Source: Candidatus Iainarchaeum sp.
GTDB lineage: Archaea; Micrarchaeota; Micrarchaeia; Anstonellales; Bilamarchaeaceae
Length of the DNA stretch: 56,416 nt
Direction of reading: 5' to 3'
Assembly (NCBI GenBank): GCA_028686985.1
Contig: JAQUBA010000004.1
Location: 1 to 56,416, forward strand
The notes under the pieces are model-generated. The model was given only the letters and a program-made list of their open reading frames with translations. It did not search any database and was not told the origin of the DNA. A program made the translations under genes and the position numbers. How positions within the stretch are numbered: the first letter of the stretch is position 1; each line of letters starts with the position of its first letter. Below are positions 20,277-41,025 of the stretch, in pieces.

Positions 20277-20350
20277 GCCCTCATAGTCTAGCCTGGATAG
20301 GACGCAAGCCTGCGGAGCTTGGAACCGGGGTTCAAATCCCCGTGAGGGCG
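20277..20350 (+). tRNA. tRNA-Arg (anticodon GCG)
   Basis: Hand-folded 74-nt cloverleaf. Acceptor GCCCTCA/TGAGGGC, anticodon arm CAAGC-CTGCGGA-GCTTG, T arm CGGGG-TTCAAAT-CCCCG. TATA-like TTTAAAC lies about 25 nt upstream and a T-run follows. Confidence 0.9.
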
Positions 20351-23710: not shown

Positions 23711-24046
23711 TTACATGAACCTTGTCCCGCATACCGGGCATCTGGTATAAAGGGTGTCCATCTCATACCCGCAGATGGGGCACCTCCACACCTGCTTCTT
23801 CGCCCGCGCAATCTCCGCCTCAAAATCATAGTCCCCGTTCACGCATTTCTTCGCGTCCAGCTCGTTCAGCTCGCCACACTTGGGGCACTTCTTCCTGAAC
23901 ATGGACTTTATGCGCACCCCGCAGGACGGGCAGCGCTCCATGTCCAGCGTCACCTTCGCCCCGCATGAGGGGCACTTGAAATCCTTGTCCGCGAGCGTGG
24001 ATTTCTTCTTGCCCAGGCCCTCTTTTATCGCGTCTAGAAGTCCCAT
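23711..24046 (-). CDS. Triple zinc-ribbon protein
   Basis: 111 aa. Paired CxxC knuckles: CPSCG..CPSCG, CPKCG..KKC, CPICG..CPVCG. Overlaps the upstream gene's 3' end by 13 nt. Confidence 0.7.
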   Translation of the reverse strand: MGLLDAIKEGLGKKKSTLADKDFKCPSCGAKVTLDMERCPSCGVRIKSMFRKKCPKCGELNELDAKKCVNGDYDFEAEIARAKKQVWRCPICGYEMDTLYTRCPVCGTRFM

Positions 24047-25050: not shown

Positions 25051-25071
25051 GAGTGGGATTTGCAGGAAGTA

Positions 25072-25079
25072 TTTATATA
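25072..25079. promoter_or_regulatory. Palindromic TATA box shared by divergent operons
   Basis: TTTATATA is centred at 25075.5, exactly midway between the minus-strand ATG (25050) and the plus-strand ATG (25101). It lies 22 nt from each start. Confidence 0.6.
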
Positions 25080-25100
25080 CTTTACAGAAGAGTGGAAAAG

Positions 25101-26780
25101 ATGCGGGGTTGGCTGTTTGCGTTGGTTCTGCTAGGGCTAGCCTTTGCTGCGGGGACGGGCGTGGAGATTCCCGACCTGAACCCGCAGGCAAACCCCGCGT
25201 TCATCGGCGCGATAATCCTGCTCTCCGTGAGTTTTGTCGCGGTGGCCTATGCCGTGTCCACCGGCCTGCAGAACCCGTCCGCCATCGCCTGGAGCAAGGA
25301 CCAGCTGAGGGAGGTGGTTGCGGGGGTAATCCTCGTGGTGATGGTGATCGGGGCTTACGCGACGATAAACGCGCTGCTTGTGCCTTTCCTCACACCGGTT
25401 ACTGAAGACGTGGACCGTGAGGTCAGCCATGATGTCGTTACCGAGACCGGGATATGGAATGTAACCTACCATGTTGCGCATGGGTGCTGCGCGGCGGGGT
25501 GCGGCCCCGGGGAATGCATTACCGGGGACGGGAGGGACGATTTTGAAGGGGAGGCCCCGGGCCCATTTACAATAAGTGCCGGGATGTGCGGGGAATTCCC
25601 GGACCCGGCGGCCGCCCCGTGCGTGAACGTCCTGGTTACCGCGAACGAGGAGCAGCCCTGCGAATACGGGGGGAGCCTCTATTCCAGCACGTGCCATATA
25701 TCGGAAAGGGCGCCCGTGGCGCAGCCGGACGGAACCTACCATACCACGGATGTGGAGATAACCGTGGACAAGGACGTGGTGACGCGCACGGAAACGGTGA
25801 CCGAGACGGTCACGGAAACCATCAGCCACCCGCCGATGACCGACAACGCCATGCTGACGCTGGGCGAGGAGGCGCTGCTTTCCGTCATCAACACGACGAA
25901 AAGGATTTACGAGAGGGTGGGGGAGGCGTATTTCAGCGTGGCCCTATACCAGGGGATGTCGGTGAGCACGACGCGGCTGAACCTTTATTACGTTACGTGG
26001 GGGGAGAGCAGCGCCCCCTTCGCTGGGATAAGCCATGTGATGGTTGCCCTCAACCAGGGGGCGCAGCAGCTCACCTTCCAGCTCCTCAGCTTCCGGGTGG
26101 TGCTGATATTCCTTTCATACATCAATTCCGTGGTTCCATCCTTCATCCTTCCGATCGGCATGGCGTTCCGGGTGTTCCCGTTCACCAAGAAAATAGGCAA
26201 CACCCTCATAGCGTTGTCCCTGGGCGCCCTGTTCATGTTCCCGGCATCCCTCGTGCTGGTGAAGGAAATCCATGGTTCCATCAACTCGGAAAAAGTCAAT
26301 GAGGCGCTCGGAAAGTCCTTCCTGCTTGAATACGAGGGGGTGGGCTCGGAGACCTACGGGCCGCTCATGGCTTTCTGCAAAGAGCCGGTTTTGAGGATAA
26401 TCCTGCTGCCGGGGGAAATACCGCTCAGCATAATCTGGGCAAGCATAGTCTGCGCATTCTCCACGCTAGCCTATGCGGCATGCTGGATAGCCCAGTGGAT
26501 GTTCTTCCTGCAGATACTGTGGCCCCTGCTCAATTTCGCGGTGCAGAACATATTCTCCATATTTGTGCTCCCGTTCGCAAACCAGATGGAGCCGCAGATG
26601 ATATATGACGACCTGGTGCAGCCCGTGCAGATGATACTCCTGCCCGCGATAGCAGAGACGGCCATGTTCGCCATAATCGCCTCCCTCATAATCGCGATAG
26701 TGACCATCACCGGAACCAAGGCCATCGCAAGCGCGATAGGCGGGGATTACATCCTCTACGGGATAACGAGGCTGGTATGA
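25101..26780 (+). CDS. Paralog 1 (P1) of an unassigned polytopic membrane protein family, with a Cys-rich loop
   Basis: I use the ATG at 25101 (MRGWLFALVLLGLAFAAG, a signal peptide). It has the family motifs VAVAYAVSTGLQNPSAIAWSKDQLREV, LPIGMAFRVFPFTKKIGNTLIALSLGALFMFP and the C-terminus AIGGDYILYGITRLV. A Cys-rich insert (HGCCAAGCGPGEC...) and a TETVTETVTET repeat lie between TM2 and the core. Confidence 0.75.
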   Translation: MRGWLFALVLLGLAFAAGTGVEIPDLNPQANPAFIGAIILLSVSFVAVAYAVSTGLQNPSAIAWSKDQLREVVAGVILVVMVIGAYATINALLVPFLTPVTEDVDREVSHDVVTETGIWNVTYHVAHGCCAAGCGPGECITGDGRDDFEGEAPGPFTISAGMCGEFPDPAAAPCVNVLVTANEEQPCEYGGSLYSSTCHISERAPVAQPDGTYHTTDVEITVDKDVVTRTETVTETVTETISHPPMTDNAMLTLGEEALLSVINTTKRIYERVGEAYFSVALYQGMSVSTTRLNLYYVTWGESSAPFAGISHVMVALNQGAQQLTFQLLSFRVVLIFLSYINSVVPSFILPIGMAFRVFPFTKKIGNTLIALSLGALFMFPASLVLVKEIHGSINSEKVNEALGKSFLLEYEGVGSETYGPLMAFCKEPVLRIILLPGEIPLSIIWASIVCAFSTLAYAACWIAQWMFFLQILWPLLNFAVQNIFSIFVLPFANQMEPQMIYDDLVQPVQMILLPAIAETAMFAIIASLIIAIVTITGTKAIASAIGGDYILYGITRLV

Positions 26781-27679
26781 TGAAGGCAGTGCCCATGGCC
26801 CTCATTTTCGTTTCCGCCGCCTTCGCGGCATGCTCCCTTGACAGCAGCCAGTTCTCGGAGGCGATGCCGATAATAGGCGCCGCAATCATGCTGAGCGTGG
26901 CGGTCGTAGCGGTGGCATATGCCGCGGGCAGCATGCTCAGGGACGCGCACCTGCTCGTATTCAGCAAGGATGAGCTTTTCCACCTCCTCATATCCGTCCT
27001 GCTCGTGGTCGCGATACAGTCCATATTCACGGGCTCATGCCTTATCACGTCGGATGTGCTGGACGGGAATGACCCGCTCACCTACTCCGTTTCATACATG
27101 CGGGGGCTGCGGATAGAAGGTTCCTCCGTCCTCACCGGGCTGATGAGGAGCTCCATAGACCAGAAATATGCGGCCGCGGAAACGGGCGGATACTTCTTCC
27201 CTTTCGTGGGCGGCGAGATATTCATGGAGGAATCGTTCAAGAACGCATATTCGCGGCACCTTGACATCGCCTTTGATTTTGTGATGATGGGCTTCGTGAG
27301 CTCGGGCCTGCAGTATGAGGGGATGAAGATGGTCGGGTTCGTCTCGCTTGGCGTGCTGCTTCCCTTTGGGCTCATATTGAGGATGCTCCCCAAGCTGAGG
27401 GATTCCGGGAACGTGGTGATCGCCCTCGCTTTTGCCATATACATCTTCATCCCCTTTTCGTATGCTGCCATCGGCTCGGTGGCGCGCGACATGCCGGTCG
27501 GATGCGATTACAAGTACGATGGCGGGGACGACCCCGTGTTCGGGCCATGCGATGGGGTGACCGGCTTCGGAACCATCGCGAACTACATAATGCAGACCAT
27601 ATTCCTGCCGAACCTTGCGCTGGTGGTGTTCGCCACGGCGGCAGGAGCGCTGGTGAAGATTGCGAAGGTGATACCATGA
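26777..27679 (+). CDS. Paralog 2 (P2), minimal member
   Basis: 300 aa. ATGA overlap with P1. Signal or lipobox-like MALIFVSAAFAAC. Motifs VAVAYAAGSMLRDAHLLVFSKDELFHLL and LLPFGLILRMLPKLRDSGNVVIALAFAIYIFIP. Confidence 0.75.
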   Translation: MMKAVPMALIFVSAAFAACSLDSSQFSEAMPIIGAAIMLSVAVVAVAYAAGSMLRDAHLLVFSKDELFHLLISVLLVVAIQSIFTGSCLITSDVLDGNDPLTYSVSYMRGLRIEGSSVLTGLMRSSIDQKYAAAETGGYFFPFVGGEIFMEESFKNAYSRHLDIAFDFVMMGFVSSGLQYEGMKMVGFVSLGVLLPFGLILRMLPKLRDSGNVVIALAFAIYIFIPFSYAAIGSVARDMPVGCDYKYDGGDDPVFGPCDGVTGFGTIANYIMQTIFLPNLALVVFATAAGALVKIAKVIP

Positions 27680-29745
27680 GGCACTGCGTACTGCTCATAA
27701 TGCTAGCTATTCTTGTTCCGGCAATCCTGGCACAGGAGGGCTACGTGGGGAGCACCCTGGCCGGGATAGAATCCGCGGGCCCGGAATCCAGCACGCTTGC
27801 GCAGGTCGCGGCGAACTGGAGGGTCCTGAGCATACTTGTGGTCATGCTCTCCGTGGGGCTGGTCGCAATCGCCTATGCCATAGCCAATGCATTCAGCCTT
27901 CCGGACCTGAAGGCATGGGCGGACGTGGAGAAGGGGGAGCTCTTCACCTCCGTGATAATAGTGATATCGCTGGTCGGGATACTCGTGTTTGTGGAAGGGG
28001 CGGGCATGGCCCTCGCGGAGGAATCGTCATTCAGGGGAATGTGCCGTGAGGCGTTCCTGGGAGGGGATTTCTGCCCAGCAGTGATAGCCAGGAGCTACCT
28101 TGACAGCTACGCGGGTGCCGCCGAAGACCTCTACAAGGATTTAAGCGTGAGGAAGATAGAGAAGGCCCAGGATGCGTACAGGGGCCACAGCATAACTTCC
28201 GTATTCCTCCTTTGGGAAATCCCGCTGTACCTGGGCACATCCTTCAGGGAGTGGGACGTGGGGTACAATACCTATGATGTGGAGATGTACGACCAGGAGC
28301 TCCAGATGCTCGGCACGATGCTTTCCACCATATACGCGCAGAGATACATAATAAATGCCCTTTCCCTGAGGATAGCGCCCCTCTGCCTCGTGCTGGGGAT
28401 AGTGCTGCGCTCCTTTTTCCTCACCCGCAAGCTCGGGGGGCTGCTGATGGCTTTCGGGGTGGGATTCCTCCTAGTGTTCCCTGCTTCCTATGCAATCGCA
28501 TACCTCACGCTGCAGAGCACGATATACGGGAACCCGACCGTAAATGCGGGGCCTGTGGTTGCGTGCCCGGAGGCGTGCACCCTGCCCCCAATCATCGCTG
28601 CGAAAACCGGAATCACAGCCACGGGGGGGGAGAGCGTGGGGCTGACTGCGAAAGAGCTGGAGGATGCGATAAGGGCCTCCACGGACTATGCGGAGGATCC
28701 GGCAGGGGTTGAGAGTTCGATAAGCGCACTGAAGAACGGAACCATCCCATCCTATTCCTATGATGACGGGGACGGGCATTATACCATAAGTTCCTGCATA
28801 ACCCCTGCACAGCTGGAGGCCTGCCCGATGCACTGCAGGCAGATCCCGTACCCGTTCCAGCTTCCCGAATGCCTGAAAGCGACATGCACCTCTCCTGTCC
28901 CGACCACCGGGCGCATAGCGCCGGCGTGCGTAAGGGTGATATACTTCAACGAAACTGTGAGGGACGACCCGCTCCTGCAAAAATACATTGAGGATTTTGA
29001 CATATGCCCGGAGAAGTGCAGGACAAAAATACCGAAGTGGGGCAGGATGTGGGACTACTATTATTCCCCTGGAATGGAAACCGCCGGCCGCCAGGTCAAT
29101 TTTGAGGTGTTTGAGGAGTGCCCGCCGCAGTGCAGGTGGATAAGCACCAGCAACGAGACCGACTCCGAATGCTCGGACCTGTGCAAGAATGTGCACAAGC
29201 AGGTTCTTGACTGGGGCTGCCACGGGGCAGACTGCTGCTCCCCTGCACATGGATTCAGCGGAGGATGGAGGGTTGAAGGCGATTACGAAGGATACGGCGA
29301 GTGGTGCGGGAAGGACTATTACCAGTTCCCGCTGGACCCGGAAGCGGAATGGGCGAAGGGCGATGACACGCCGGACGACCCGACGGATGACTTTTATGAG
29401 GGGACCACCTACATTATACCGGATGCCGCATTCACGGAGGATTGCGAGCCGTGCCTCTATGTGTTTGACAAGGGCCTTGCCTACAAGCCGCAGGTGATTT
29501 CGGACTGCGTAACCCTGTGCGGGGCGGCGCTTTCCACGGCCAGGACTTATGAGGACCCGGCTACAATGACCAACAAGATGGACGGGCTGGTGGGGCCGAC
29601 CGAGATGAAATCCGTCGCAAAGCTGATAATACCCGCATTCGTACTTCCTCTGTTCGGGCTTGCGGTAACGCTGATGTTCATACAGTCTTTGTCGCCGATG
29701 CTAGGCGGGGATATTGACATCCCGGGAATGATGAGGATGCTATGA
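27676..29745 (+). CDS. Paralog 3 (P3), with a ~340-aa Cys-rich ectodomain insertion
   Basis: I use the ATG at 27676 (ATGA overlap with P2; MRHCVLLIMLAILVPAILAQ) rather than the track start at 27502. Motifs VAIAYAIANAFSLPDLKAWADVEKGELF and LVLGIVLRSFFLTRKLGGLLMAFGVGFLLVFP. C-terminus LGGDIDIPGMMRML. The insert carries CPEAC, CPMHC, CPEKC and CPPQC. Confidence 0.75.
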   Translation: MRHCVLLIMLAILVPAILAQEGYVGSTLAGIESAGPESSTLAQVAANWRVLSILVVMLSVGLVAIAYAIANAFSLPDLKAWADVEKGELFTSVIIVISLVGILVFVEGAGMALAEESSFRGMCREAFLGGDFCPAVIARSYLDSYAGAAEDLYKDLSVRKIEKAQDAYRGHSITSVFLLWEIPLYLGTSFREWDVGYNTYDVEMYDQELQMLGTMLSTIYAQRYIINALSLRIAPLCLVLGIVLRSFFLTRKLGGLLMAFGVGFLLVFPASYAIAYLTLQSTIYGNPTVNAGPVVACPEACTLPPIIAAKTGITATGGESVGLTAKELEDAIRASTDYAEDPAGVESSISALKNGTIPSYSYDDGDGHYTISSCITPAQLEACPMHCRQIPYPFQLPECLKATCTSPVPTTGRIAPACVRVIYFNETVRDDPLLQKYIEDFDICPEKCRTKIPKWGRMWDYYYSPGMETAGRQVNFEVFEECPPQCRWISTSNETDSECSDLCKNVHKQVLDWGCHGADCCSPAHGFSGGWRVEGDYEGYGEWCGKDYYQFPLDPEAEWAKGDDTPDDPTDDFYEGTTYIIPDAAFTEDCEPCLYVFDKGLAYKPQVISDCVTLCGAALSTARTYEDPATMTNKMDGLVGPTEMKSVAKLIIPAFVLPLFGLAVTLMFIQSLSPMLGGDIDIPGMMRML

Positions 29746-30794
29746 TGAAGAAGTTCCTGCTGGCGCTCCTGCTCGTTTCCCTCTCGTTTGCGGCAGAGGC
29801 GGAAGCATGGCAGGTCTATTCCATAACCGCGGTGCTTGCGGCCTTTAGCGTGCTCGTGATATTCTACATGCTCACCTACGCCGTGGACAGCCCGCAGGCG
29901 AGGGGGATGGCGGTAAGCGAGATGTTCCAGGTGCTCGTTACGCTCGTGATAATCGCGGTCTTCGTCGGGGCCGAGGGATACAGCCGTGACGTGCTTGCGC
30001 CGGCATTCGGAGAGGATTTCGGGGCTCCGGAGGGCTATACCCACCTTGATTTTGCGGTGAACATAACCAAATCAATGATCAATTACCAGTGGGGCCAGAT
30101 AACCAAGCTGGACGGGCAGGTCGTGAGGCCGCTTGCGAACCTCGCAACGGTCACGGGCAACTGCGGCTTCCTGGGCTTCAGCTTCACCTTCAATGGCTGC
30201 GCGGGGATAGCCGTCCCGTCCGGCTCGATGGCGCTTGCGATGAGGGTGCTGGTCGCATGCATACTGAGCCTCAGTTCCCAGCTGGTGCTCCTCATGCTCG
30301 CGAACGACTTCTTCTTCCCGGTGCTCCTGCCCATGGGCCTGTTCCTCCGCTGCTTCCACGTCACGAGGGGGACGGGGGGCTTCCTCATCGCGGTTGCGGT
30401 CGCCTTCTATTTCGTGTATCCGCTAGGGGTGATAATAACCAAGGGGATGCTGGACCAGGCCGAGGCGGGGCTGGTGGCGGCCGCGGGGGCGGACAACTAC
30501 GACCCCGTGATACCGTCAATTGATGCGCCGAATGCCGACCTGATGAGCGTGGAATCATTGGAATGGATTGTGCCGGGGGACTGCGACCCCTTTGACATGA
30601 GCTATGAGCCCACAAAGACGATGATTGGGAAGGTCATGAATCCGGACCTCATGGACAGGATGATTTTCCATTTCTTCATAGGGGGATTGTTCACGAGTGC
30701 ATTGAACCTTCTGATAGCGCTTTCAAGCGTAAGGGAGCTGAGCAGGATATTCGGGACTGAGGTTGACGTCTCGGCTCTGGCGAGGGTGTCCTAG
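29742..30794 (+). CDS. Paralog 4 (P4)
   Basis: 350 aa. ATGA overlap with P3. Signal peptide MMKKFLLALLLVSLSFAAEA. Motifs LLPMGLFLRCFHVTRGTGGFLIAVAVAFYFVYP and C-terminus RELSRIFGTEVDVSALARVS. Confidence 0.75.
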   Translation: MMKKFLLALLLVSLSFAAEAEAWQVYSITAVLAAFSVLVIFYMLTYAVDSPQARGMAVSEMFQVLVTLVIIAVFVGAEGYSRDVLAPAFGEDFGAPEGYTHLDFAVNITKSMINYQWGQITKLDGQVVRPLANLATVTGNCGFLGFSFTFNGCAGIAVPSGSMALAMRVLVACILSLSSQLVLLMLANDFFFPVLLPMGLFLRCFHVTRGTGGFLIAVAVAFYFVYPLGVIITKGMLDQAEAGLVAAAGADNYDPVIPSIDAPNADLMSVESLEWIVPGDCDPFDMSYEPTKTMIGKVMNPDLMDRMIFHFFIGGLFTSALNLLIALSSVRELSRIFGTEVDVSALARVS

Positions 30795-30802
30795 GTGTTC
30801 TG

Positions 30803-31873
30803 ATGGCGATTGAGCTTGCGGCGATGTACCCGCTTTCCGTTTTTGCGCTGGGCATCACCATGATTGTAATCGGGCTGGCGTATGCGCTCTCCCAGCTGCT
30901 GCAGAACCCCGCGTTCCTTGTCTGGTGCAAGACGGAATTTTTTGAGGTGTTCGTTTCGCTTGGGATAGTGCTGGTGACGCTGTTCATGATTGGGTTCATA
31001 ACCAACGACGTGAAATACGGGGCGTTCGTGTCCCTGCTCCCGTCCGGCATTGCGGCCCCTTCGTATTCAAATCCGGAGATAGGGGACGGCGACACTGTGT
31101 TCAATGCATCCTCAAAATACCTCACAAACGTCGCATACTTCGTGCACACGAGCATGGAGGGCTCCAGGGCGGCGTACGGCGCGCTGGAGGTGCACATGAG
31201 GTACAGGAGGATGCCATGCCTCCCGGGGATATTGATGTGCATATTCGGCCCCAGCGGATTCAATTTCGCGCCGGAGAGCGGGGGGGGCGCATGGATACAG
31301 GCCATGAACATGACCATGTATACGGACACTGCGGCATACATCACCGTGCTGGTGCAGCTCGCATTCCTCTCCTTCATCCAAAGCGGCGGGTTCCTGCTCT
31401 TCCTCCCTCTTGCGATAGTGTTCCGCTCGCTCCCGTTCATGCGGCAACTTGGAGGGGGGCTGATGGCGATGTGCATCGCATTGTTCATAATCTACCCGTC
31501 GCTGCTGTTCCTGGAGTCGTTCTTCTGGGACCCCTCCGCGATGGTTGGCGCTTCGGAGATTGAGTCGGTGGAAAGCGCGATAAGCGGGATGGCGGGGGCA
31601 GGGGGGGCCGGGGTCGGGATGTTCAGCAACAGCCTTCCGGATGATTTGGACGGGAATGTGTGGAACGAAGGCACATCCCTGAACGACTTTGTCGGGTACA
31701 GGGAGGTTGTGGACAATGCCGTCAGGCCGCTGCTGAAAATAGCCGCGGTCTCGTTCCTGAGCTCCACGTTCCTCTTTGCGCTGAACATAATCGCGGTTTC
31801 CGCATCCGCCAGGGAGTTGGGAAGGCTTTTCGGGCAGGAAGTTGACCTGAGCAGGCTCATGCACATAGTGTAG
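30803..31873 (+). CDS. Paralog 5 (P5)
   Basis: 356 aa. AGGTG Shine-Dalgarno-like sequence in the 8-nt gap. Motifs IGLAYALSQLLQNPAFLVWCKTEFFEVF and FLPLAIVFRSLPFMRQLGGGLMAMCIALFIIYP. C-terminus RELGRLFGQEVDLSRLMHIV. Confidence 0.75.
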   Translation: MAIELAAMYPLSVFALGITMIVIGLAYALSQLLQNPAFLVWCKTEFFEVFVSLGIVLVTLFMIGFITNDVKYGAFVSLLPSGIAAPSYSNPEIGDGDTVFNASSKYLTNVAYFVHTSMEGSRAAYGALEVHMRYRRMPCLPGILMCIFGPSGFNFAPESGGGAWIQAMNMTMYTDTAAYITVLVQLAFLSFIQSGGFLLFLPLAIVFRSLPFMRQLGGGLMAMCIALFIIYPSLLFLESFFWDPSAMVGASEIESVESAISGMAGAGGAGVGMFSNSLPDDLDGNVWNEGTSLNDFVGYREVVDNAVRPLLKIAAVSFLSSTFLFALNIIAVSASARELGRLFGQEVDLSRLMHIV

Positions 31874-31878
31874 GTGAT

Positions 31879-32919
31879 ATGGTGGCTGGTGAAGAAGGGG
31901 GGCTTTTTGACGTATCCAGCCTCCTGAACACGCCGTTCCTTTACGGATGGGGGGACGGGGGCTGGTGGTTTGTGAATTGCGTCCTTGCAATACTCATTAC
32001 CGGCCTGATAATGGGCATGTTCTACGCGATAGGCTATGCGATAAACTCTGCGAACCTGAAAAGGTATTCCATGTCCGAGTTCCTCCAGCTTGCGGCAACC
32101 GCGGTGCTGGTGATTGGGCTGGTGGGGATGCTGAGCATGGGGAGCACGGTGCTCGGGACGATGTTCGGGGGGACGATCCAGTGCAAGGGGAGCCCGATAA
32201 GCAACCACATTGATGCGGCAATGTGCAGGACCACGGAGAAGCTGGGGTATTTCAATGCGGCATACGAGCAGATAAAGGAGGACAATGCGGGGCTGGAATG
32301 GCTTTATTACTGGCAGATGACGCTGCTCGGGGTGCCTTTCTTCCAGGGGATGTGGATAGACGACGTTTACAAGCCGGTGGAAACCGGCCATTACATAGCG
32401 ATGAAGATAGTGTCCGTAATGCTGTCGCTGAACGCGCAGTATTTCCTGCTCAAGTACATAAAGGCGAACATGCTCGCCACCTTCCTTCCCCTGGGCATAA
32501 TACTCCGCACGCTGCACTTCACGCGGGGCATAGGCGGATTCTTCATCGCCCTGGCGGTAAGCCTGTATTTTGTGTATCCCGGGGCGCTTTTCCTCATGGA
32601 TGCGACCTACGCCCCGCCCAGCGACGTGCCGACCCCGGATTACACGAGGGAAGGGGTATGCGACCTGCCGATGTTCAGCGGGTTTTCCATAGGCGCAATC
32701 CAGCCGGCTTCGGATGCGGGAAGGGGGGCTATGAACAGTGCGGCCCGCGCGGCCATCAGCACCGGCAATATGGCCAACTTCGTGACTCGTGTATTCGTAG
32801 GGCTTTTCTTTGACAACATGGTGGCTTTTGCGATGGCGCTCACTGTGATGAGGTACGCAACCAGCCTCCTTGGCGGGGAAGCAGGGGTATTCCTGCAGAT
32901 GATGGCAAGGTGGGTATGA
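31879..32919 (+). CDS. Paralog 6 (P6)
   Basis: 346 aa. AGGTGA in the 5-nt gap. Motifs MFYAIGYAINSANLKRYSMSEFLQL and FLPLGIILRTLHFTRGIGGFFIALAVSLYFVYP. C-terminus LLGGEAGVFLQMMARWV. Confidence 0.75.
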   Translation: MVAGEEGGLFDVSSLLNTPFLYGWGDGGWWFVNCVLAILITGLIMGMFYAIGYAINSANLKRYSMSEFLQLAATAVLVIGLVGMLSMGSTVLGTMFGGTIQCKGSPISNHIDAAMCRTTEKLGYFNAAYEQIKEDNAGLEWLYYWQMTLLGVPFFQGMWIDDVYKPVETGHYIAMKIVSVMLSLNAQYFLLKYIKANMLATFLPLGIILRTLHFTRGIGGFFIALAVSLYFVYPGALFLMDATYAPPSDVPTPDYTREGVCDLPMFSGFSIGAIQPASDAGRGAMNSAARAAISTGNMANFVTRVFVGLFFDNMVAFAMALTVMRYATSLLGGEAGVFLQMMARWV

Positions 32920-35900
32920 TGGACAGGGACATATTGGTCGTTTTGGCGCTTCTCTTCGTTTTTGCAGGATGCACGATGCCCGAATACCGCCAGTGCTGCC
33001 TTTACGCGAATGCCGAGGCGGGGCAGTGCGTGCTCAAGAATGCGACCGCCTACGACACCAACTCGTGCGACATGGAGAACCTCACCTGCAACGTGACGCA
33101 GGGCGACAGGGAGATGACATTCCCCATCTGCCCGAGAGTGGAGGAGGTGGAGTGCAATGTTTCGTGCGCTGGGATGTTCTGCGCAAAATACGAATACGAC
33201 CCAAGGCCGCCCGCCTCGCCCGATTTCATGATTGAGGCGATACAGACCGAGGAGATGAGCAGGGAGGCCGGCATCGGGCTCGGGGAGGACACGGCAAAGG
33301 GCCTCTACGGCACGGAATGCAGGATAGAGAACATCACCCCGACGTTCCTTAACCTCATGAGGAACGTGCAGGGCGGCGTGCGCCTGAACATATTCAGGTT
33401 CGGGGTGGGGGGCTCCTTTGAGGAATTTGACGAGGCATACATGTACTACCCGCTCACCGACTACGCATGCGAAAACAACCAGTTCGGGCATGTGGACCGG
33501 TATGTGAACTACATGATACCGAATTTGATGGGCGGCGGGGAACTGTGCAGCGTGGGGGGCGTGCTCACCCCCACCGGGGAGATACCGCAGTATTTCTGCA
33601 ACGTGGATGATTCCATCCGCACCTTCACCTACCAGGACTGCGCGACAAGGTGCGCGCTGAAGGCATACGGGGATGCCCCGGTGGTCCAGCCCAACAACGC
33701 CTACCCCACGGAAAGGAACGGGATGGAGAGCGGGAACCCGTTTGCATACGGGGTTTCGCCAAGCATGCACGGTAGCGACCCTTTCAGGGACCTGCAATAC
33801 AAATCGTCCATAGATGTCCCGCCGGCGTTTGACGACGAGTATCCTGCGGGGTACACATACTACGGAAGCGAATTCGCGAACAACAGGTACCTGAGCAACG
33901 AGAATGGCGGCTGGGAGAGCATCATGCTTGAGCGCGGCCCCCTCTCCGTGGATGTGACCACCGGCTTCATGGATTACTATTATGGGGAGGAAACGGACCA
34001 GATAACTGTGGAGGGCGGCAACCTAGTGGAGGAGATGACCACAGCCGAAAGGGACCCGCACATGCTGTATTCGTACCTGCTCTCCCGCCATTCCGTCTAT
34101 TCAAAGCAGTTCAAGGAAGGGCATTACACCCCGGAGGGGGAATGGAGCCCGGGCGCGGAATTTGAGTGCACGCTTGAAGGCGGGGAGTGCGTCTCGGGGT
34201 TCTGCAATACATTTGATTATACCAGGGGCGCATGCGAGAAGCTTGACTTTGAAACCGGCGAAACGGAGGAGGTGCCCTGCGACTGCTGGGAGGAATACGG
34301 GGACATAGTGTGCGCCGGGCAGAAATATTATGGAACGGATGCGTGGGACAACGGGGAGGACATAACCGCGGCCAAGCCGCTGGGGACGCTCGTGGAGTGG
34401 GATGAGAGCTTCCTTGGGTTTAGTATCGGGTGGTACAGGAGCTTCCCTTCCACTGGGAAGATGTTCAGCTACGACCCTGGCGGGGTATTCCTGGACGAGC
34501 CGGAGGGGGAAGAGGTGCAGGACCTAGTGATATTGCTTGGGGGCAGGGAGGACCCGGACTACCAGCTATTTGAATATTCGGACGAGCTGGATGACATGAA
34601 TGAGACGCTCACCATCCCGCAGGTGCTCTCCAGGGCGAAGTGGAGCGGGTGCGGCGCGTATTCCGATTGCGGAAAGTTCTACACGACCTTTGTGGACGCG
34701 TGCATGCCGGATTTACCGGACCCGGCATACTCCGAATCCAATTTCATGGTCTGCTACAGCAGGAAAACGAACGGGCACTACGGGCAGGGGATAGACCGGG
34801 CAACCGGGGAGGTCTACGACCTGCCCAGCCCGTCCATCTGCGAGGCGCTTTATGATGCAGACCAGGATGGACACAGCAAAAATGATTACGGGGGCGTGGA
34901 CAAGAACAGCGACACCGACCATGACGTGTATTGCTATGCGAGGGAGTCCGACGGGACGTGCGTCGGGTATGCGAGGGCGGCGCTGGTCCTCACGGCCCGC
35001 GAAATAACCTATACAAACGCGGACGGGGAGGAGGTGATAGGCAAGGCATTCGGGAACTGCATACTGGAGGAGGACAAGCTCAAGGTGGTGACGCCCGGCT
35101 ATTGCGAGCATTGCAGCTTCCTCACCATGGCGAAGGAGAATGTGGTAGAACTACCGGAAGATGATGAAGACCCGGGATACCAGAGGGCAGGCAGCGGGAA
35201 GCTCAACACGAACAAGTACTGCCCCTCCCTTGAGATAAGCACCATATACAATAATGAGCCGTCCGCCATCGTGCTTGCGCCCGGCACCGCGAAAGCAGAT
35301 TGGGAATCCGGGGGGACGCATAGCTCGGGAGGGGATGAGGGGAACCCCTACAGGTACAGCGAATGCACGATGCCTGACGGGACCGAAGCCGGAAAAAAGG
35401 CGGCATGGCCGGATTACCTCCCGAACGCATATTACCTGAAGAAAAAAATAGACGGATACCTGCAGAGGAACGTGATGCCGGTCATATTCGCGGATGACGA
35501 TGGGCTCTACCGGGGACTATACCCCGGAACGGACGACCCCGCCCTTTTTGTGGAAACGGACGGGGATTCCGCCTCAAGCCCCCTGCTGAAGAAGCTGTAT
35601 GACGAGAACCCGCTCGGCTTCGCGGAAAACGCGGACGAGGGCGGGGACGAGTACACGACACAGGGGACCTTCCTTGCGGATTCCGTGATGAACCTCGGCG
35701 CCGGGATAATCGTGGTGAGGAACTTCAATTCAGACGACATGGAAGCCGCCGGGGGCTCGCCCATCATAATCACAGAAACCGGGGAAGCCAGGTCGCTCAG
35801 GAAGATAGATTACACGCTTTACGCCCGCGAGAGGGCGGTCCGGCTCATGTGCCCGAACTGCATGGTCGCGGTCGGGATAGGCTATGGTGAAGAGGGCTCC

Positions 35901-37118
35901 GGCATACCCTCAAGGGTGGTCCAGCTCGCCGAATTGTTTGATTACCGGGATTCCGGCGGCAGGCTCCTCTCGGAATACGATGACTACGGGGCGAACGCCT
36001 CGTGCTTTGAAGGGGGGGCGGGCTGCAGCCAGGACACGCTGCAGAGGGTGGACATACTCGCCGTGAAGTGGGAACTGGGGAGGCACAATTCATATTGCGA
36101 CGAAATAGAGAATGAGAGCGACAGGTTTGAGGCCATCCTCGCGGATGAGGTGGATTTCGGGGCAAAGACGCTCAAGAGGTTTGGGAAGCCGGTCGTGGTT
36201 ACGGATTTCTCCATAACGCGCAACCAGGTGGGGAGCTGCTGGGATGATGAAAGCGCAAAGAGGTTCATGATTTACCTTGCCGAGCATACGCAGGAGCTGG
36301 TGAAGAGCGGGCACATAGGGCTGATATACGGGAACTGGACCTACGGCCACTCCGGGGAAGCGGGCACGAGGTACATAAGGACGAAGGAGGGCAACGTTGG
36401 GGAATACAGGGGGCCGTTCTTTGAAGGCACTTTCCAGGCGGCGCGCATTTTCGCAGGCAAGAATGAGCAGACCATAGTGAACCAGATAGGCGTTTCGGAA
36501 GAATGCGCGTGCGTCGCCTGCACCTCCAGCGACGATGCATCGCTGTGCAACGGAAAGTTCGGGGGGGTGGGGGAATACTGCAGCGGGTATTTGCCGGGCA
36601 TTTCCATGAAATGGCCGGAATCGTGCGTCTCCCCGGATGTTTGTGTGAGCAACGAAGACCTCCCGATGTACAGGATTGAGTGCAACGTTTATCACAACGA
36701 CGGGAGCAGCGAAAGGGTTGTTTATGACGGCGCGGACATCGCCCCGAACCCGCGGCTCTATGCGGCGGAAATCGCATCCATAAAGAAATCCGGGAATGTG
36801 CCGTGCATCCCGATGGGCGTGCAGAACGGAAGCTTCGCCACAATGGAGGTCGGTGGCTCGCAGCCATATCCCATCCTGTTCAGGAAGGACGGAAACCTGA
36901 GCATATCCTGCGGGGGGGTGGCGGAGGAGGGTTTCTTCAGCGCATGCGGCCTGGAGTCGCCGTTCGTAAACCGCAGGATGGACTGCGTGATGGCGAAGAA
37001 GGATGTGTCCATAACGCTTCCGCCGCTGGGGGTCCCGCTTGTCACGGGCGGGGCGGCCATTCCGCTGGCGCCTGGGGTTGAAGTGCCGGACATGCCCGCC
37101 GGCCCGTTCGGTGGATAG
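32916..37118 (+). CDS. Giant (~1400 aa) Cys-rich extracytoplasmic protein with a lipobox-like signal
   Basis: I use the ATG at 32916 (ATGA overlap with P6). N-terminus MMDRDILVVLALLFVFAGC (L-x-x-C lipobox-like). About 50 Cys by my hand count. Many N-x-S/T sequons (NAT, NLT, NVT, NVS, NIT, NET...). No further TM helix seen. No family recognised. Confidence 0.7.
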   Translation: MMDRDILVVLALLFVFAGCTMPEYRQCCLYANAEAGQCVLKNATAYDTNSCDMENLTCNVTQGDREMTFPICPRVEEVECNVSCAGMFCAKYEYDPRPPASPDFMIEAIQTEEMSREAGIGLGEDTAKGLYGTECRIENITPTFLNLMRNVQGGVRLNIFRFGVGGSFEEFDEAYMYYPLTDYACENNQFGHVDRYVNYMIPNLMGGGELCSVGGVLTPTGEIPQYFCNVDDSIRTFTYQDCATRCALKAYGDAPVVQPNNAYPTERNGMESGNPFAYGVSPSMHGSDPFRDLQYKSSIDVPPAFDDEYPAGYTYYGSEFANNRYLSNENGGWESIMLERGPLSVDVTTGFMDYYYGEETDQITVEGGNLVEEMTTAERDPHMLYSYLLSRHSVYSKQFKEGHYTPEGEWSPGAEFECTLEGGECVSGFCNTFDYTRGACEKLDFETGETEEVPCDCWEEYGDIVCAGQKYYGTDAWDNGEDITAAKPLGTLVEWDESFLGFSIGWYRSFPSTGKMFSYDPGGVFLDEPEGEEVQDLVILLGGREDPDYQLFEYSDELDDMNETLTIPQVLSRAKWSGCGAYSDCGKFYTTFVDACMPDLPDPAYSESNFMVCYSRKTNGHYGQGIDRATGEVYDLPSPSICEALYDADQDGHSKNDYGGVDKNSDTDHDVYCYARESDGTCVGYARAALVLTAREITYTNADGEEVIGKAFGNCILEEDKLKVVTPGYCEHCSFLTMAKENVVELPEDDEDPGYQRAGSGKLNTNKYCPSLEISTIYNNEPSAIVLAPGTAKADWESGGTHSSGGDEGNPYRYSECTMPDGTEAGKKAAWPDYLPNAYYLKKKIDGYLQRNVMPVIFADDDGLYRGLYPGTDDPALFVETDGDSASSPLLKKLYDENPLGFAENADEGGDEYTTQGTFLADSVMNLGAGIIVVRNFNSDDMEAAGGSPIIITETGEARSLRKIDYTLYARERAVRLMCPNCMVAVGIGYGEEGSGIPSRVVQLAELFDYRDSGGRLLSEYDDYGANASCFEGGAGCSQDTLQRVDILAVKWELGRHNSYCDEIENESDRFEAILADEVDFGAKTLKRFGKPVVVTDFSITRNQVGSCWDDESAKRFMIYLAEHTQELVKSGHIGLIYGNWTYGHSGEAGTRYIRTKEGNVGEYRGPFFEGTFQAARIFAGKNEQTIVNQIGVSEECACVACTSSDDASLCNGKFGGVGEYCSGYLPGISMKWPESCVSPDVCVSNEDLPMYRIECNVYHNDGSSERVVYDGADIAPNPRLYAAEIASIKKSGNVPCIPMGVQNGSFATMEVGGSQPYPILFRKDGNLSISCGGVAEEGFFSACGLESPFVNRRMDCVMAKKDVSITLPPLGVPLVTGGAAIPLAPGVEVPDMPAGPFGG

Positions 37119-37126
37119 GGGTTTAA

Positions 37127-40100
37127 ATGCTTGAGCACCCAAAAAAATTCATGAGGCCGGCTGCCCTGCTGCTACTGGTGATGCTCCTTTCCCTCGGCTC
37201 CGCATCCGATGGCATAGGGGGCGGGCCAGATGTAGGCGGCGGGATAAGCCCTGAGGCCACGGCAGGGGCGGGCATAGAAATTCCGGTTTATCCCGACATA
37301 TCAAGGCCCATACCCGTCCCTGAAGCGTGCGCCGAATGCCCGCCTCCCGGGCTTGAGCCCCCCCTAATGCTCCCATTCCTGGATGACGTGGGGAAGGATG
37401 CCTCCATCTATGTTGCGGCGACCAAGGAAGGGCGGAGGGTTCCGCTGGAGGGCGCGACCGTATTTATCCATGTATATAAGAGCGCTGGGGATTTCGTATA
37501 TTCGTGCAGGGCATATACCGATTCTTCGGGGGGGGCTGTGCTCTCTTACGCCCCATATGAGGAGGCCTGCAAGAATGGATGCACCATCAAGTTTGTTTTC
37601 TGCTGCTCCGGAGTGGTGGAGCAGTCCTGCATGCTGCCGGTATGCCTCGGGAGCAGCATAACCTCCTACAGCGATTACGTCTCCTGCCCGGGCTATCCGG
37701 ACCCGTGGCCCGTGAATGCGACTGTTGATGGGGTGGCTTACCCGGCCGCGCCCGCCGTTGCAGAGACGCAGATACCCCCCTCCGCGGAGGCGGCCGCCTT
37801 TGCATTGGATTTCGTGTTCTGCTTCCCGATTCTTGTGCTCTTCGGGCTGCTTGGGGCGGCTATGTACGCGTCGGGCAGGGACCCGTTTGCAATTTTCTCG
37901 TTCTACACGCCGAGATATACGCGGGGGGCGGAAAGGCCGATGGGGGCGAGGGGGTTCACATTTGACACGAGGACGATAATGGGTGCGGCGCAGAGCATAG
38001 CCATGGCGGGGATTGCCGGGGCGAGAAAGGCGGAAAAGCAGAGCTCGCAGCAATCCAGCAGCCAGCAGCAGGGTGGAGGCGGGCAGGTGCAAACCACTCA
38101 GGGCGCGACCGGCGCGCTGGGGGAGCCGAGGCAGGCCCAGCAGCCCACGCAGGCACCTTCCGCCGCCTCGGTTGCGCCCCAGGGGGCGCGGGCGCCTGGC
38201 GGTGGCCTGAGCGCAGTAGACCTGAGGGCCGCGGCTCCGCAGACCGGAGGGCTGCCCATCCAGCTGCTTGCGAATGCAATCTTCAAGATGTTCACGGGGG
38301 ACATGAGCGGCTGGAGCAGGTTTGCGCAACTGTTCACTAGTTCTTCCATATACGGGCAGTTTGAAGGGATTGGGGCGCAGGAATTCGCGGCGCAGATGGC
38401 CAGCACCCTCCTCATCTACAGCAACCTCCCGTTCGGGTGGCTCGTGAACAGCTTCACATACTCTCCGCACTTGCAGACGCTTGCAGGCGCAAGGAACCTT
38501 GCGAACATAGGGAAGCTGAGCGACATGCTGTATGGATGGACCGATGAGGAAGGGCATTTCCACAGGGGATGGCAGGAAGATGTGAGCGGCAATATACACA
38601 TAAGCTGGAGGCAGGACGGGGAGGTGCAGGAAAGGGTGTTTGCAAGGGGCTCAAACGAGCTCGTCACCTTCATCCAGAACAACGTAACCGACTCTTACTA
38701 TTCTGCTCAGCAGTTCGTGCAGGTCGCCATGGCGGACTCCCAGCAGGGGCTGGCCGCATCCTCCACCGAAGCGATTGAGGGCAACCTCCGCGGGGCCGAG
38801 GGGAGGATGGGGATAGTTGACCTCACCCACAGGCTGCAGGGATTCACTCCGGAGCAGGTTCAGGCATGGACCACGGAAAGGGGGTTCCAGGGGGCATTCA
38901 GTGGGGCAGTCGGGGTGTTGATGAGCGGCAGGAATGCGGATGGGACGGAGACGACCATGCAACAGAAGATTGAGGCGTTCCGGACCGCCGCAGCCGCGTT
39001 TTCCGTGTTCTCGGGCACCGAAGGGTTCGCGGACAGGTATTCATCGCTCAGCGCAACCCAGGAATTCAGGTTCCTGGAGCGGATGATGACCGTGACCGGG
39101 ACGGCCGAATCCCCCGGGCTGCTCAGGGAGATTATGGCGGCGGAGGGAGGGATGAACGGGGGGGTGCTGACATCAGCCTCGCTCATCGCGCTCTGCATGG
39201 GTTCAACCGACAACGCAACCGCCCAGGCTGCGGGCTCATCGGCAATGGGCGGCCTGCGCGGGATAATCACTTCCGGAGAAGGGCGCCCGAACGTTGCATT
39301 CTCTGAAGGCGCGGAGGGGGTGCATGAGAGGAATTTGTTATCAATGGTGCTTGGGAGCTCAATAGCTTCCCTTGAACCGGCTTCGGAATCATACCAGCAA
39401 CAGTCCTACATGCTCGCCGCGCTTTCAAGCGAATACCGGCTTGAAGCCCAGGCTGTGGCGGAAGGGCTCGCCCCGGATGCGGGCAACAGGGGCTGGGCCG
39501 AGGGGAGCCTTGACATCAGTGCCGGGACCCGGGACTGGGCCGAGCAGTTCCAGGGGAACGCAGCCACGTCCATCGCATTGCAGGAGATGGAACCCATGAT
39601 GGACGCCATGACCAGGTACGCATTCTTCAACGACCCGGTCGCAAGGGAGGTCCTGGCAGCCGCCGACCCGGTGCCCTATGAGGAACTGCAAAGGCGCCAG
39701 AGGGAGGGGGAGCTGTCCTCATCGGACCAGTATCTATTATACGCATACCAGTGCGGAAGGCAGGACCAGGAAAGAGGACGGGAAGTGGGCGCCGCCGCAT
39801 ACGGGCTCAGCGGCGAGGCCGGGGCGGCGGAAGGAATGCTCACGCAGCAGCAGAGGCTGGATGCGGCGCGGACGATTGTGGAGAGCACGCCTATAGAAGC
39901 CGATGTGTCGGGATGGATTGCGGCGGGCAACCAGGAGGCGCGTGCCGCCGCGGTACGCAGCGAGGAGGGGCTGGGAACCGTGCAGAGGTATGCTTTTGGC
40001 CTGTATTTTTCTGATAATGAAGCGGATAAGCAGAGGGGCATGGAGCTTTTGGGGGCAGTCGGTGCGGTCTATCAGGGAACGGGGCCGGAGCGGGACGCGG

Positions 40101-40711
40101 CCGTGGCAACGATATACAACAGCACGCCTGCAGAAATATGGGTTGGCCTATCGGGCGCTGCCGCGACGCAGCTTCTTGTTGATGGGAATGCCGGTGCAAT
40201 CACTGCGGCGCGGACCTACGGAGAACATTATGCCGCGGCCGGCGAGGCCGGAGCGAATCTGGAGGCGGCGCCTGTGGGGCCGCGCCAAGCCATATACGAC
40301 CCCGCAATCAGGGAACCGAGAATCTCGGCATTTGACGCGATGGCCGGCGCCGGCTCCATAGACGTAAATCATTATATGGGCTCGCCCGTGATGCAACAGC
40401 AGACCGCCGCGGTGATGGATGCGGTTGCGGCGAGCACCGCGCGTTTCGCCGCGAGTTCGTTATACCAGGATTATTTCAGCAGCCACACCGAAACCGTGGA
40501 CCAGTGGATGGAGCAGGCGAGGGAGCACCAGAGGCGGCTGGACGAGGCGGGCGCGGTCACCACCGAAACCGGGGCGGTTGTGCTGCCGGAGGAGGGGGGC
40601 GGCGGGCCTCCCGGAGGTGGCTGGGGCGCCAGCGAATACAGCCAAGCGGCACGGAGGGCATACGAGGCAAGGGGCAGGGGGCAGGTCCCCGGTGAGGAAA
40701 TACCCAGGTAA
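37127..40711 (+). CDS. Giant (~1190 aa) bitopic protein: Cys-rich ectodomain, TM, Q/S/G-rich linker, large Ala/Gly/Gln-rich domain
   Basis: Signal peptide MRPAALLLLVMLLSLGSASDG. The N-terminal ~210 aa are Cys-rich. TM FVFCFPILVLFGLLGAAMYA is followed by an Arg-rich flank. Low-complexity KQSSQQSSSQQQGGGGQVQTTQG...QAQQPTQAPS. The remaining ~850 aa contain only two Cys. No Walker motifs seen. Confidence 0.7.
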   Translation: MLEHPKKFMRPAALLLLVMLLSLGSASDGIGGGPDVGGGISPEATAGAGIEIPVYPDISRPIPVPEACAECPPPGLEPPLMLPFLDDVGKDASIYVAATKEGRRVPLEGATVFIHVYKSAGDFVYSCRAYTDSSGGAVLSYAPYEEACKNGCTIKFVFCCSGVVEQSCMLPVCLGSSITSYSDYVSCPGYPDPWPVNATVDGVAYPAAPAVAETQIPPSAEAAAFALDFVFCFPILVLFGLLGAAMYASGRDPFAIFSFYTPRYTRGAERPMGARGFTFDTRTIMGAAQSIAMAGIAGARKAEKQSSQQSSSQQQGGGGQVQTTQGATGALGEPRQAQQPTQAPSAASVAPQGARAPGGGLSAVDLRAAAPQTGGLPIQLLANAIFKMFTGDMSGWSRFAQLFTSSSIYGQFEGIGAQEFAAQMASTLLIYSNLPFGWLVNSFTYSPHLQTLAGARNLANIGKLSDMLYGWTDEEGHFHRGWQEDVSGNIHISWRQDGEVQERVFARGSNELVTFIQNNVTDSYYSAQQFVQVAMADSQQGLAASSTEAIEGNLRGAEGRMGIVDLTHRLQGFTPEQVQAWTTERGFQGAFSGAVGVLMSGRNADGTETTMQQKIEAFRTAAAAFSVFSGTEGFADRYSSLSATQEFRFLERMMTVTGTAESPGLLREIMAAEGGMNGGVLTSASLIALCMGSTDNATAQAAGSSAMGGLRGIITSGEGRPNVAFSEGAEGVHERNLLSMVLGSSIASLEPASESYQQQSYMLAALSSEYRLEAQAVAEGLAPDAGNRGWAEGSLDISAGTRDWAEQFQGNAATSIALQEMEPMMDAMTRYAFFNDPVAREVLAAADPVPYEELQRRQREGELSSSDQYLLYAYQCGRQDQERGREVGAAAYGLSGEAGAAEGMLTQQQRLDAARTIVESTPIEADVSGWIAAGNQEARAAAVRSEEGLGTVQRYAFGLYFSDNEADKQRGMELLGAVGAVYQGTGPERDAAVATIYNSTPAEIWVGLSGAAATQLLVDGNAGAITAARTYGEHYAAAGEAGANLEAAPVGPRQAIYDPAIREPRISAFDAMAGAGSIDVNHYMGSPVMQQQTAAVMDAVAASTARFAASSLYQDYFSSHTETVDQWMEQAREHQRRLDEAGAVTTETGAVVLPEEGGGGPPGGGWGASEYSQAARRAYEARGRGQVPGEEIPR

Positions 40712-40716
40712 TCCAA

Positions 40717-41025
40717 ATGCCAGAAACCCGCCCGGTAAAAAGATTGAGGAGGCACCTCACAATAGAAAACCTCTGGCTCTACATATTATCCCTAATCAGG
40801 AAGGAAGAGTGCTATGCGTATACCCTCCCGGAGCAGATAGAGAGGGGCTTCCATTTCAGGCCCAGCAGGGTCATGGTGTATATCGTGCTCCATATGCTGG
40901 ATGGCGAGGGGCTCATAAAAAGCGAGCAGAAGGAGAGAAGAAAATATTACAGGCTTACGGAAAAGGGGAAGGAGACGCTCAAGGAAGCGAAATGGGAGCT
41001 GAAAGCCCTCTCGGAAAAATTATGA
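40717..41025 (+). CDS. PadR-family winged-helix transcriptional regulator
   Basis: 102 aa. LWLYILSLIRKEECYAYTLPEQIE....VMVYIVLHMLDGEGLIKSEQKERRKYYRLTEKGKETL matches the PadR N-domain pattern. A 5-nt gap separates it from the preceding giant gene. Confidence 0.75.
   Translation: MPETRPVKRLRRHLTIENLWLYILSLIRKEECYAYTLPEQIERGFHFRPSRVMVYIVLHMLDGEGLIKSEQKERRKYYRLTEKGKETLKEAKWELKALSEKL

Follow-up and report, generated by a model that had tools for sequence, protein, structure and literature searches.

The window analyzed here is a stretch of 56,416 nucleotides from Candidatus Iainarchaeum sp. (contig JAQUBA010000004.1), and the gene under study, G2, encodes a large membrane protein. A preliminary description of the window had given G2 a signal peptide, a Cys-rich part, a transmembrane (TM) helix, an Arg-rich flank, a low-complexity tract and a long helical part, and this layout was borne out. 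The peptides quoted for it were all found in the translation: EACAECPPPG at residues 66-75, EEACKNGCTIKFVFCCSGVVEQSCMLPVC at residues 145-173 and RDPFAIFSFYTPRYTRGAERPMGARG at residues 251-276. G2 and its parts, with coordinates on the window, are as follows.

37127..40711, plus strand: G2, 1194 amino acids (aa) from an ATG start, predicted single-pass membrane protein.
37127..37207, plus strand: predicted Sec-type signal peptide, residues 1-27 (KKFMR / AALLLLVMLLSL / GSAS), with a putative cleavage site.
37310..37792, plus strand: Cys-rich beta-sandwich, predicted extracellular, residues ~62-222; 10 of its Cys are invariant across the nine sequences of alignment A1.
37802..37876, plus strand: TM helix FALDFVFCFPILVLFGLLGAAMYAS, residues ~226-250, highly conserved.
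37877..37966, plus strand: juxtamembrane (JM) motif RDPFAIFSFYTPRYTRGAERPMGARG, predicted cytoplasmic, residues 251-280.
38012..38212, plus strand: low-complexity disordered spacer, residues ~296-362, Q/S/G-rich, devoid of predicted secondary structure and with a predicted local distance difference test (pLDDT) score of 25-35.
38375..38461, plus strand: semi-hydrophobic Gly/Ala-rich helix, residues ~417-445, Kyte-Doolittle hydropathy (KD) 0.98, below the usual TM threshold; it may be membrane-associated.
38267..40708, plus strand: helical Cys-poor C-domain, predicted cytoplasmic, residues 381-1194, with 2 Cys, 4 Lys and 50 Arg.

Hydropathy was evaluated on the Kyte-Doolittle scale throughout. 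Residues 7-32 of G2 form a signal-like hydrophobic stretch (KD 1.9) with KKFMR as the n-region and GSAS as the c-region, and 16 of 17 orthologs have a hydrophobic segment at the N-terminus. In all eight full-length homologs of alignment A1, Met9 is the first aligned residue of G2, which suggests Met9 (37151) as a possible true start. The second strong segment, residues 219-250 (KD 2.45), corresponds to the TM helix previously placed at 37790-37862. A weak third segment (residues 156-174, KD 1.65) lies within the Cys-rich ectodomain, and after residue 250 no segment with KD of at least 1.5 was found. The 20 residues before the TM helix contain no Lys or Arg and two Asp or Glu, and the flank after it contains five Lys or Arg vs three Asp or Glu. 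Cys residues occur at positions 68, 71, 127, 148, 152, 159, 160, 168, 173, 187 and 232, making the ectodomain about 5% Cys, and later just at 690 and 876. The counts on the two sides, 11 in 205 aa and 2 in 944 aa, differ significantly (Fisher p = 2.6e-7). C690 and C876 are the only Cys of the C-terminal part and no Walker A motif was found in G2, in agreement with the earlier statement that this part has two Cys and no nucleotide-binding motif.

G2 is the eighth gene in a tight plus-strand series, in which the genes are closely spaced or overlap. The other members, in order, are listed below.

25053..26780, plus strand: P1, likely start at 25101.
26777..27679, plus strand: P2, P-family paralog.
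27676..29745, plus strand: P3, for which the mechanical open reading frame (ORF) runs from 27502 and overlaps P2.
29742..30794, plus strand: P4, P-family paralog.
30803..31873, plus strand: P5, P-family paralog.
31879..32919, plus strand: P6, P-family paralog.
32910..37118, plus strand: G1, 1402 aa with 53 Cys (3.8%), a predicted secreted giant directly upstream of G2.
40717..41025, plus strand: PadR-family regulator (PF03551, E = 1.7e-13), 5 nt past the G2 stop.

The start of P3 was placed at the Met at 27676, which opens the signal-like segment MRHCVLLIMLAILVPAILAQEG and forms an ATGA overlap with the stop of P2; the gene calls for P3 orthologs likewise abut the preceding gene or overlap it by 4 nt. 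P1-P6 are predicted polytopic (5-TM) membrane proteins. Pairwise BLAST showed that they are mutual paralogs, which have in common a hairpin of the pattern LP.G...R....TR..GG..P and resemble one another in the C-terminal tail, and a hidden Markov model (HMM) of the P6 family matched exactly P1-P6 in the window. The distribution of charge and Cys suggests that P1-P6 are oriented N-out/C-in, with conserved cytoplasmic hairpins and tails. P1, P3 and G1 are rich in Cys in the regions predicted to lie outside. The signal of G1 ends in a lipobox-like LFVFAGC, and its orthologs, 1384-1855 aa long and 29-46% identical, lie upstream of G2 in every colinear locus. An AlphaFold2 (AF2) model of P6 built from 25 sequences (mean pLDDT 73.6) has five helices, all very long at 26-50 residues, and the first of its outer loops carries a small beta element. 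Foldseek found no structural neighbor for this model in PDB or BFVD, and likeness to VirB6/TrbL, FlaJ or ExbB, which had been considered as a candidate, was not found in these databases. Because the model is confident and has no structural neighbor, the six-paralog family may represent a new membrane fold.

Neither Pfam nor NCBIfam nor PHROGs gave a match to G2, G1 or P1-P6, and searches of the PDB by sequence and profile gave no significant match to G2, G1 or P6. A word-indexed search returned nine relatives of G2, and its profile version brought no additional homologs. When 1.84 billion representatives were searched exhaustively with an HMM built from a 6-sequence alignment, 240 clusters (50% identity) were obtained at E <= 1e-3, 98 of which reach 1e-10. 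The layout of G2 is thus not a product of chance, since it recurs in 240 homolog clusters. Family members are ~950 to 2781 aa long, and outside the closest clade the match is limited to profile positions ~45-350(-550), corresponding to the ectodomain, TM helix and juxtamembrane region. A pattern scan with one genome per GTDB species identified 17 loci, all from Micrarchaeota (including Ca. Burarchaeum) except for two titled merely 'archaeon'. The named members of the family belong to Micrarchaeota / Micrarchaeia throughout, and the G2 family is restricted to Micrarchaeota. G2 itself has the features by which the family is recognized, namely the signal, the Cys-rich ectodomain, the TM motif with its basic flank, a Cys-poor C-part of more than 460 aa and adjacency to P genes and G1.

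Conservation along the protein is strongly uneven. Identity of G2 to eight homologs is 69% over the TM helix and JM motif, 38% over the ectodomain, 19% over the spacer and 13-21% over the C-domain, so that the TM and juxtamembrane stretch is the best conserved. An HMM of this stretch matched 151 of 151 family sequences and G2 itself (E = 1.3e-36), and the universal motif reads C.P....F..L.GA.Y.[ST]G[RK][ND]PF..F[DN]...R..R..RY..RGRG. The C-part evolves fast and ranges from 463 to 2560 aa across the family. The outer end also varies: two homologs (P0131 and P0162) carry N-terminal extensions of 900-1200 aa ahead of the sandwich-TM module, which hold right-handed beta-helix/NosD and Ig-like (Big_13) domains. 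These extensions suggest that in the family the outer end can serve as an adhesin. The nearest relative, the partial sequence P0001 from 'Candidatus ainarchaeum sp.', is 99% identical to G2 across 724 overlapping aa.

The topology was evaluated on 122 full-length-like representatives of the family. The median Cys content is 4.35% before the TM helix vs 0.13% after it (maximum 0.9%), and the N-terminal side exceeds the C-terminal side in every representative. The 40 residues past G[RK][ND]P carry a net positive charge in all 122, with a median of six Lys or Arg vs one Asp or Glu. The TM helix itself has a median KD of 2.24 and reaches at least 1.6 in 122/122, whereas the most hydrophobic segment of the following 320 aa has a median of 1.44, reaching at least 1.6 in 29, at least 1.8 in 13 and at least 2.0 in one. 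Beyond that segment the remainder has a median KD of 1.03 and never reaches 1.8, and 109 of the 122 representatives have no further segment with KD >= 1.8. The extracellular-type domains gained by P0131 and P0162 are exclusively N-terminal of the TM helix, and no recognizable domain was found past it in 15 homologs scanned, including C-parts of 1500-2500 aa. The density of sequons per 100 aa is 0.32 in the C-part vs 0.78 in G1. Judged from these sequence signals, G2 most likely consists of a signal peptide, an ectodomain, one TM helix and a cytoplasmic C-part, that is, an N-out/C-in arrangement. The bitopic topology proposed at first is thereby supported across the whole family by the Cys asymmetry, the positive flank and the lack of a second strong TM segment. 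We read the Gly/Ala-rich helix at residues ~417-445 as a membrane-proximal or buried helix.

The part beyond the membrane was modeled less well than the part outside. In an AF2 model of full-length G2 from a 9-sequence alignment (mean pLDDT 44), an all-beta sandwich at residues 76-218 was modeled with some confidence (pLDDT 70-84), as were a small beta unit at ~470-510 and helices at ~570-640 (pLDDT around 60-75). The rest of the C-domain is helical in the model and unreliable (pLDDT about 30-45). Foldseek of this low-confidence model against the PDB gave no match at E <= 1e-3, and the top weak matches were generic Ig/FN3 sandwiches and ARM/HEAT-like repeats. The C-domain, for which the preliminary description had proposed a structural check, thus had a pLDDT of about 40 and no match in the PDB, and the usable part of the model is the ectodomain. 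The large helical Cys-poor part described earlier is predicted here too, and it may act as a scaffold, as was suggested. A HEAT/PBS-like repeat, 'L..DP.SS...R..A', was considered for the C-domain and rejected, as it occurs in 0-2 copies per protein and in none in G2.

The composition of this region differs between lineages. The C-terminal 814 aa of G2 contain 15% Ala, 11% Gly, 6.5% Gln and 0.5% Lys, and the C-domain can be described as a 'lysine desert', with 4 Lys vs 50 Arg and a K/(K+R) ratio of ~0.1 vs ~0.5 in the other proteins of the window. Lys makes up 1.6-2.9% of the C-part in close relatives and up to 15.6% in distant orthologs. Low Lys as a sign of an extracellular C-domain was rejected on account of this range among orthologs (0.7-15.6%). 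The Q-rich linker described earlier turned out to be lineage-specific: Gln makes up 15% of the spacer in G2 vs 2-8% in 16 orthologs, where the spacer is basic and rich in Ala and Gly. Its length is not conserved either, since the spacer varies from 24 to 264 aa, and it is net positive in 17/17. At 38030..38075, P0001 has an extra 4-aa QQGG relative to G2, showing that the length of the tract is polymorphic between near-identical strains; such an indel is expected because the spacer is of low complexity and prone to slippage.

The gene neighborhood bears on the partners of G2. P/G1 genes adjoin it in 15 of the 17 species-level loci, of which 11 are colinear and 4 divergently transcribed. The 11 colinear loci have the order ...P4-P5-P6-G1-G2 as in the window, or are cut by a contig end. 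In the other four, which come from distant genomes (L017, L020, L021 and L022), G2 lies on the opposite strand, divergent from the P genes, and the flanks differ; exactly six P paralogs are present in three of these rearranged loci (L017, L021 and L022). That the linkage is kept after rearrangement is the strongest indication of G2 working together with the P proteins. G2 belongs to a conserved multi-gene membrane locus whose linkage survives strand inversion, which supports the machine subunit supposed in the preliminary description.

From these data we propose, with about even confidence, that P1-P6, G1 and G2 form an envelope complex specific to Micrarchaeota, in which G2 acts as the transmembrane tether or scaffold subunit. 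After Sec export and signal cleavage, the disulfide-bonded beta-sandwich would sit beneath the surface layer (S-layer), outside the cell alongside those parts of P1, P3 and G1 that are rich in Cys. The single TM helix and the SGR[DN]PF..F...R motif would form a docking interface for the six 5-TM paralogs, arranged as a ring or bundle, and the flexible basic spacer would connect it to a soluble, all-helical domain of very large size in the cytoplasm. In this way, G2 would couple an extracellular Cys-rich module to the cytoplasm. The complex would probably be part of the cell-surface or host-contact apparatus of these episymbionts, a role that we favor because the locus is phylum-specific, has Cys-rich exposed parts and shows gains of adhesin-type domains in some homologs.

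Several observations weigh against this proposal. The model of the C-domain is unreliable, as the mean pLDDT of 44 indicates, and the domain can hardly be aligned between orthologs (13-21% identity), an unusual trait in a structural scaffold. Its extreme Lys poverty sets it apart from the other cytoplasmic proteins encoded in the window. The second segment with KD >= 1.6 in 29 of the 122 family members makes a membrane hairpin conceivable. No P genes are present in the available flanks of two Burarchaeum-like loci (L018 and L019), where G2 is ~1816 aa long. Finally, Pelota and other neighbors are syntenic too, so colinearity could reflect general conservation of the genome in this clade.

If G2 formed such a hairpin, the Gly/Ala-rich helix, located ~110-175 aa past the TM helix, would be a second span; the cytoplasm would then hold just the basic JM region and the spacer, and a ~750-aa helical domain would lie outside, for example as a surface fiber or host-contact arm. 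In favor of this arrangement, the segment has a KD of 1.85-2.02 in five loci (L010, L011, L012, L013 and L020), besides the 29 family members already mentioned, and the profile match of several distant members runs on through it. The C-domain is also fast-evolving, rich in Ala, Gly, Gln, Ser and Thr, and Lys-poor in the present lineage, as in many secreted filament proteins. However, in 76% of members, G2 with its KD of 0.98 among them, the segment falls short of the TM threshold, and the C-part has 0.13% Cys, whereas the clearly extracellular parts of the locus are all Cys-rich. The low sequon density compared with that of G1 and the fact that extracellular-type domains were never seen C-terminal of the TM helix point in the same direction, and we regard the hairpin as unlikely.

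A regulatory role can also be considered, in which G2 is a membrane-tethered partner of PadR, its ectodomain sensing the envelope or host contact and its cytoplasmic part sequestering or releasing PadR, in the manner of an anti-sigma factor and its sigma factor. The position of the regulator is compatible with this idea. PadR lies directly after the 3' end of G2 in L023 and in the colinear loci wherever the contig continues, at a distance of 5 nt in the window and with a 4-nt overlap with the G2 stop in L003. It is not downstream of G2 in the rearranged loci, where L017 has a small AbrB/SpoVT-like ORF, also of a DNA-binding type, after G2 (13479..13763), but L020, L021 and L022 have no small regulator there. 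Moreover, a fast-evolving domain of 460-2560 aa far exceeds the needs of a tether, the Pfam search detected no PspC or other sensor domain, and PadR could simply autoregulate the operon. A PadR partnership is accordingly improbable.

We give no greater weight to the view that G2 is a stand-alone surface receptor or adhesin with a cortex- or cytoskeleton-like cytoplasmic tail, independent of P1-P6 and G1, and that the neighborhood is inherited synteny; this, too, seems improbable. The beta-helix/NosD/Ig outer domains of some homologs are of adhesin type, weak coiled-coil matches (crescentin rod, prefoldin) were obtained from K/E-rich orthologs, and both the missing P genes near G2 in L018 and L019 and the similar synteny of the flanking housekeeping genes fit an independent protein. 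Against it, adjacency to the six paralogs is kept after the inversion in four distant genomes with differing flanks, and because the TM helix itself is the most conserved part, a fixed intramembrane partner can be argued for.

Another reading takes G2 as a polymorphic protein of effector or toxin type, in which a conserved N-terminal module for trafficking would deliver variable C-terminal cargo to the host. It would agree with the conserved N-terminal ~300 aa, the C-part hypervariable in sequence and length, and the lysine desert of this lineage, but it is very improbable, given that no toxin or enzyme domain was present in any C-part scanned (G2 and 15 homologs), that the window has no second TM/JM module, with one syntenic G2-family ORF detected per locus, that the gene downstream is PadR, AbrB-like or unrelated and not a consistent immunity-like small gene, and that the close strain P0001 remains 99% identical over the 724 aa of overlap.

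The proposed tether was also compared with known systems. In Sulfolobales, slaB follows slaA, and G2 similarly stands directly after the ~1400-aa secreted giant G1. G2 resembles the SlaB stalk and SLP_Mh in having a Sec signal, a beta-sandwich ectodomain and a single TM helix. Unlike SlaB, which ends at the TM helix, G2 runs on for ~940 aa, and unlike SLP_Mh, the ectodomains of G2 and G1 are Cys-rich. Pfam and PDB sequence searches detected no PF05123, SlaA or SlaB similarity in G2 or G1. SLP_Mh, the S-layer protein of Micrarchaeota, is a 101-kDa protein of the PF05123 type with almost no sulfur amino acids (10.1101/2021.04.28.441871). G1 was considered as the S-layer protein and rejected, since SLP_Mh is PF05123-type and Cys-poor.

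Tape-measure proteins share with G2 a length of ~1000 aa, an Ala/Gly/Gln-rich, helical and Cys-poor composition and hydrophobic segments, but G2 differs in its signal peptide and Cys-rich ectodomain and matches no tape-measure family among PHROG or Pfam families. Its setting is not a phage tail module either, and no phage genes lie close by: it is found among membrane paralogs, PadR, Pelota, a tRNA synthetase and GMP synthase, in the same order across Micrarchaeota genomes. Homology to a surface fibril or tape-measure protein, named in the preliminary description as a finding that would tell against its view, was not detected in the Pfam, PHROG and PDB sequence searches.

TolA and TonB are comparable in that a conserved TM helix, presumed to dock on polytopic partners encoded alongside, is combined with a long, compositionally biased and poorly conserved spacer or helical part. 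They are N-in with the long domain outside, whereas G2 is predicted to be the opposite and has a signal peptide and an ectodomain, so the comparison is one of analogy. A MotA/ExbB/TolQ-family partner was not found, as P1-P6 have no Pfam or NCBIfam match. In general plan, G2 may also be likened to the KASH/nesprin-SUN (LINC) system, in which a giant helical cytoplasmic domain is joined through one TM helix to a small far-side domain engaging partners, and, in concept, to the cytadherence proteins of the attachment organelle of mycoplasmas, which are also minimal, surface-attached cells. These systems belong to another domain of life, have another domain order and show no homology to G2, and the likeness would be a functional analogy. 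As far as sequence can tell, G2 belongs to none of the tape-measure, S-layer, TolA/TonB-ExbB or polymorphic-toxin kinds, and none of the known kinds tested accommodates the G2 family or its locus, which have no detectable relative in characterized systems. The earlier view that the locus encodes an envelope machine rather than a passive coat is in line with the linked membrane genes and the lack of coat homology, and the function as a machine is suggested.

To our knowledge, no symbiont-side machinery of Micrarchaeota has been identified genetically. Full-text searches of the literature on Micrarchaeota cultivation, S-layers, cryo-electron tomography (cryo-ET) and DPANN protein families found no description of this locus. 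Most lineage-specific families of DPANN archaea are reported to consist of extracellular or membrane-bound proteins without a known function (PMC8204110). By cryo-ET, a 21-nm barrel was observed under the symbiont S-layer of Micrarchaeon ARM-1, at the place where host nanotubes dock (PMC11329633). It is conceivable, though doubtful, that P1-P6, G1 and G2 together build a symbiont-side structure linking Micrarchaeota to their hosts, such as this barrel, with the six paralogs forming a pseudo-hexameric ring and the cytoplasmic domain of G2 anchoring or gating its cytoplasmic face.

The envelope complex proposed here would bear on the attachment of DPANN archaea to their hosts and on the exchange of material between the two. 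The locus has the traits expected of such machinery, being phylum-restricted and vertically inherited, and encoding membrane and Cys-rich extracellular proteins along with a subunit that is predicted to reach deep into the cytoplasm. It provides a nine-gene candidate set for work in the existing co-cultures (A_DKE, ARM-1 and Mia14). If its true role lay in envelope biogenesis and not in host contact, the locus would still represent a new family of archaeal membrane complexes, and, if the P6 model is correct, a new fold would also be defined for the six-paralog family.

Further genes of the window flank the series. The housekeeping neighbors include Pelota, a class II aminoacyl-tRNA synthetase, GMP synthase, MscS, tRNAs and the RNA of the signal recognition particle (SRP). 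An ATPase upstream had been named as a possible partner of G2.

20384..23074, plus strand: double-AAA (CDC48-like) ATPase, predicted to be membrane-anchored through a ~320-aa polytopic N-terminal region.

It is preceded by tRNA-Arg(GCG) at 20277..20350, and the same arrangement is found upstream of the locus in L023 and L025. The ATPase was seen upstream just where the locus order is colinear (the window, L023 and L025), the other colinear flanks being too short, and no AAA match was obtained in the flanks of L017, L020, L021 and L022. The partnership thus agrees with the colinear loci and not with the rearranged ones, and because the ATPase was not seen near the latter, we treat its link to G2 as unproven.

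On the minus strand, 24034..25053 encodes a protein of ~340 aa with a signal peptide, ~3% Cys and a C-terminal TM helix, divergent from P1; its likely start is at about 25053, within an ORF that reaches 25191. A 344-aa protein on the same strand occupies the equivalent position in L025, a similarity of size and place alone, and the protein might belong to the same system. The combination of signal peptide and C-terminal TM helix recurs in a PQQ/BamB-like beta-propeller protein at 13073..14635, whose Cys content of 0.4% shows that not every exported protein here is Cys-rich. The SRP RNA at 1908..2160 on the minus strand had its best match not to the archaeal model but to the bacterial large SRP model RF01854, at 65.8 bits against a threshold of 60.

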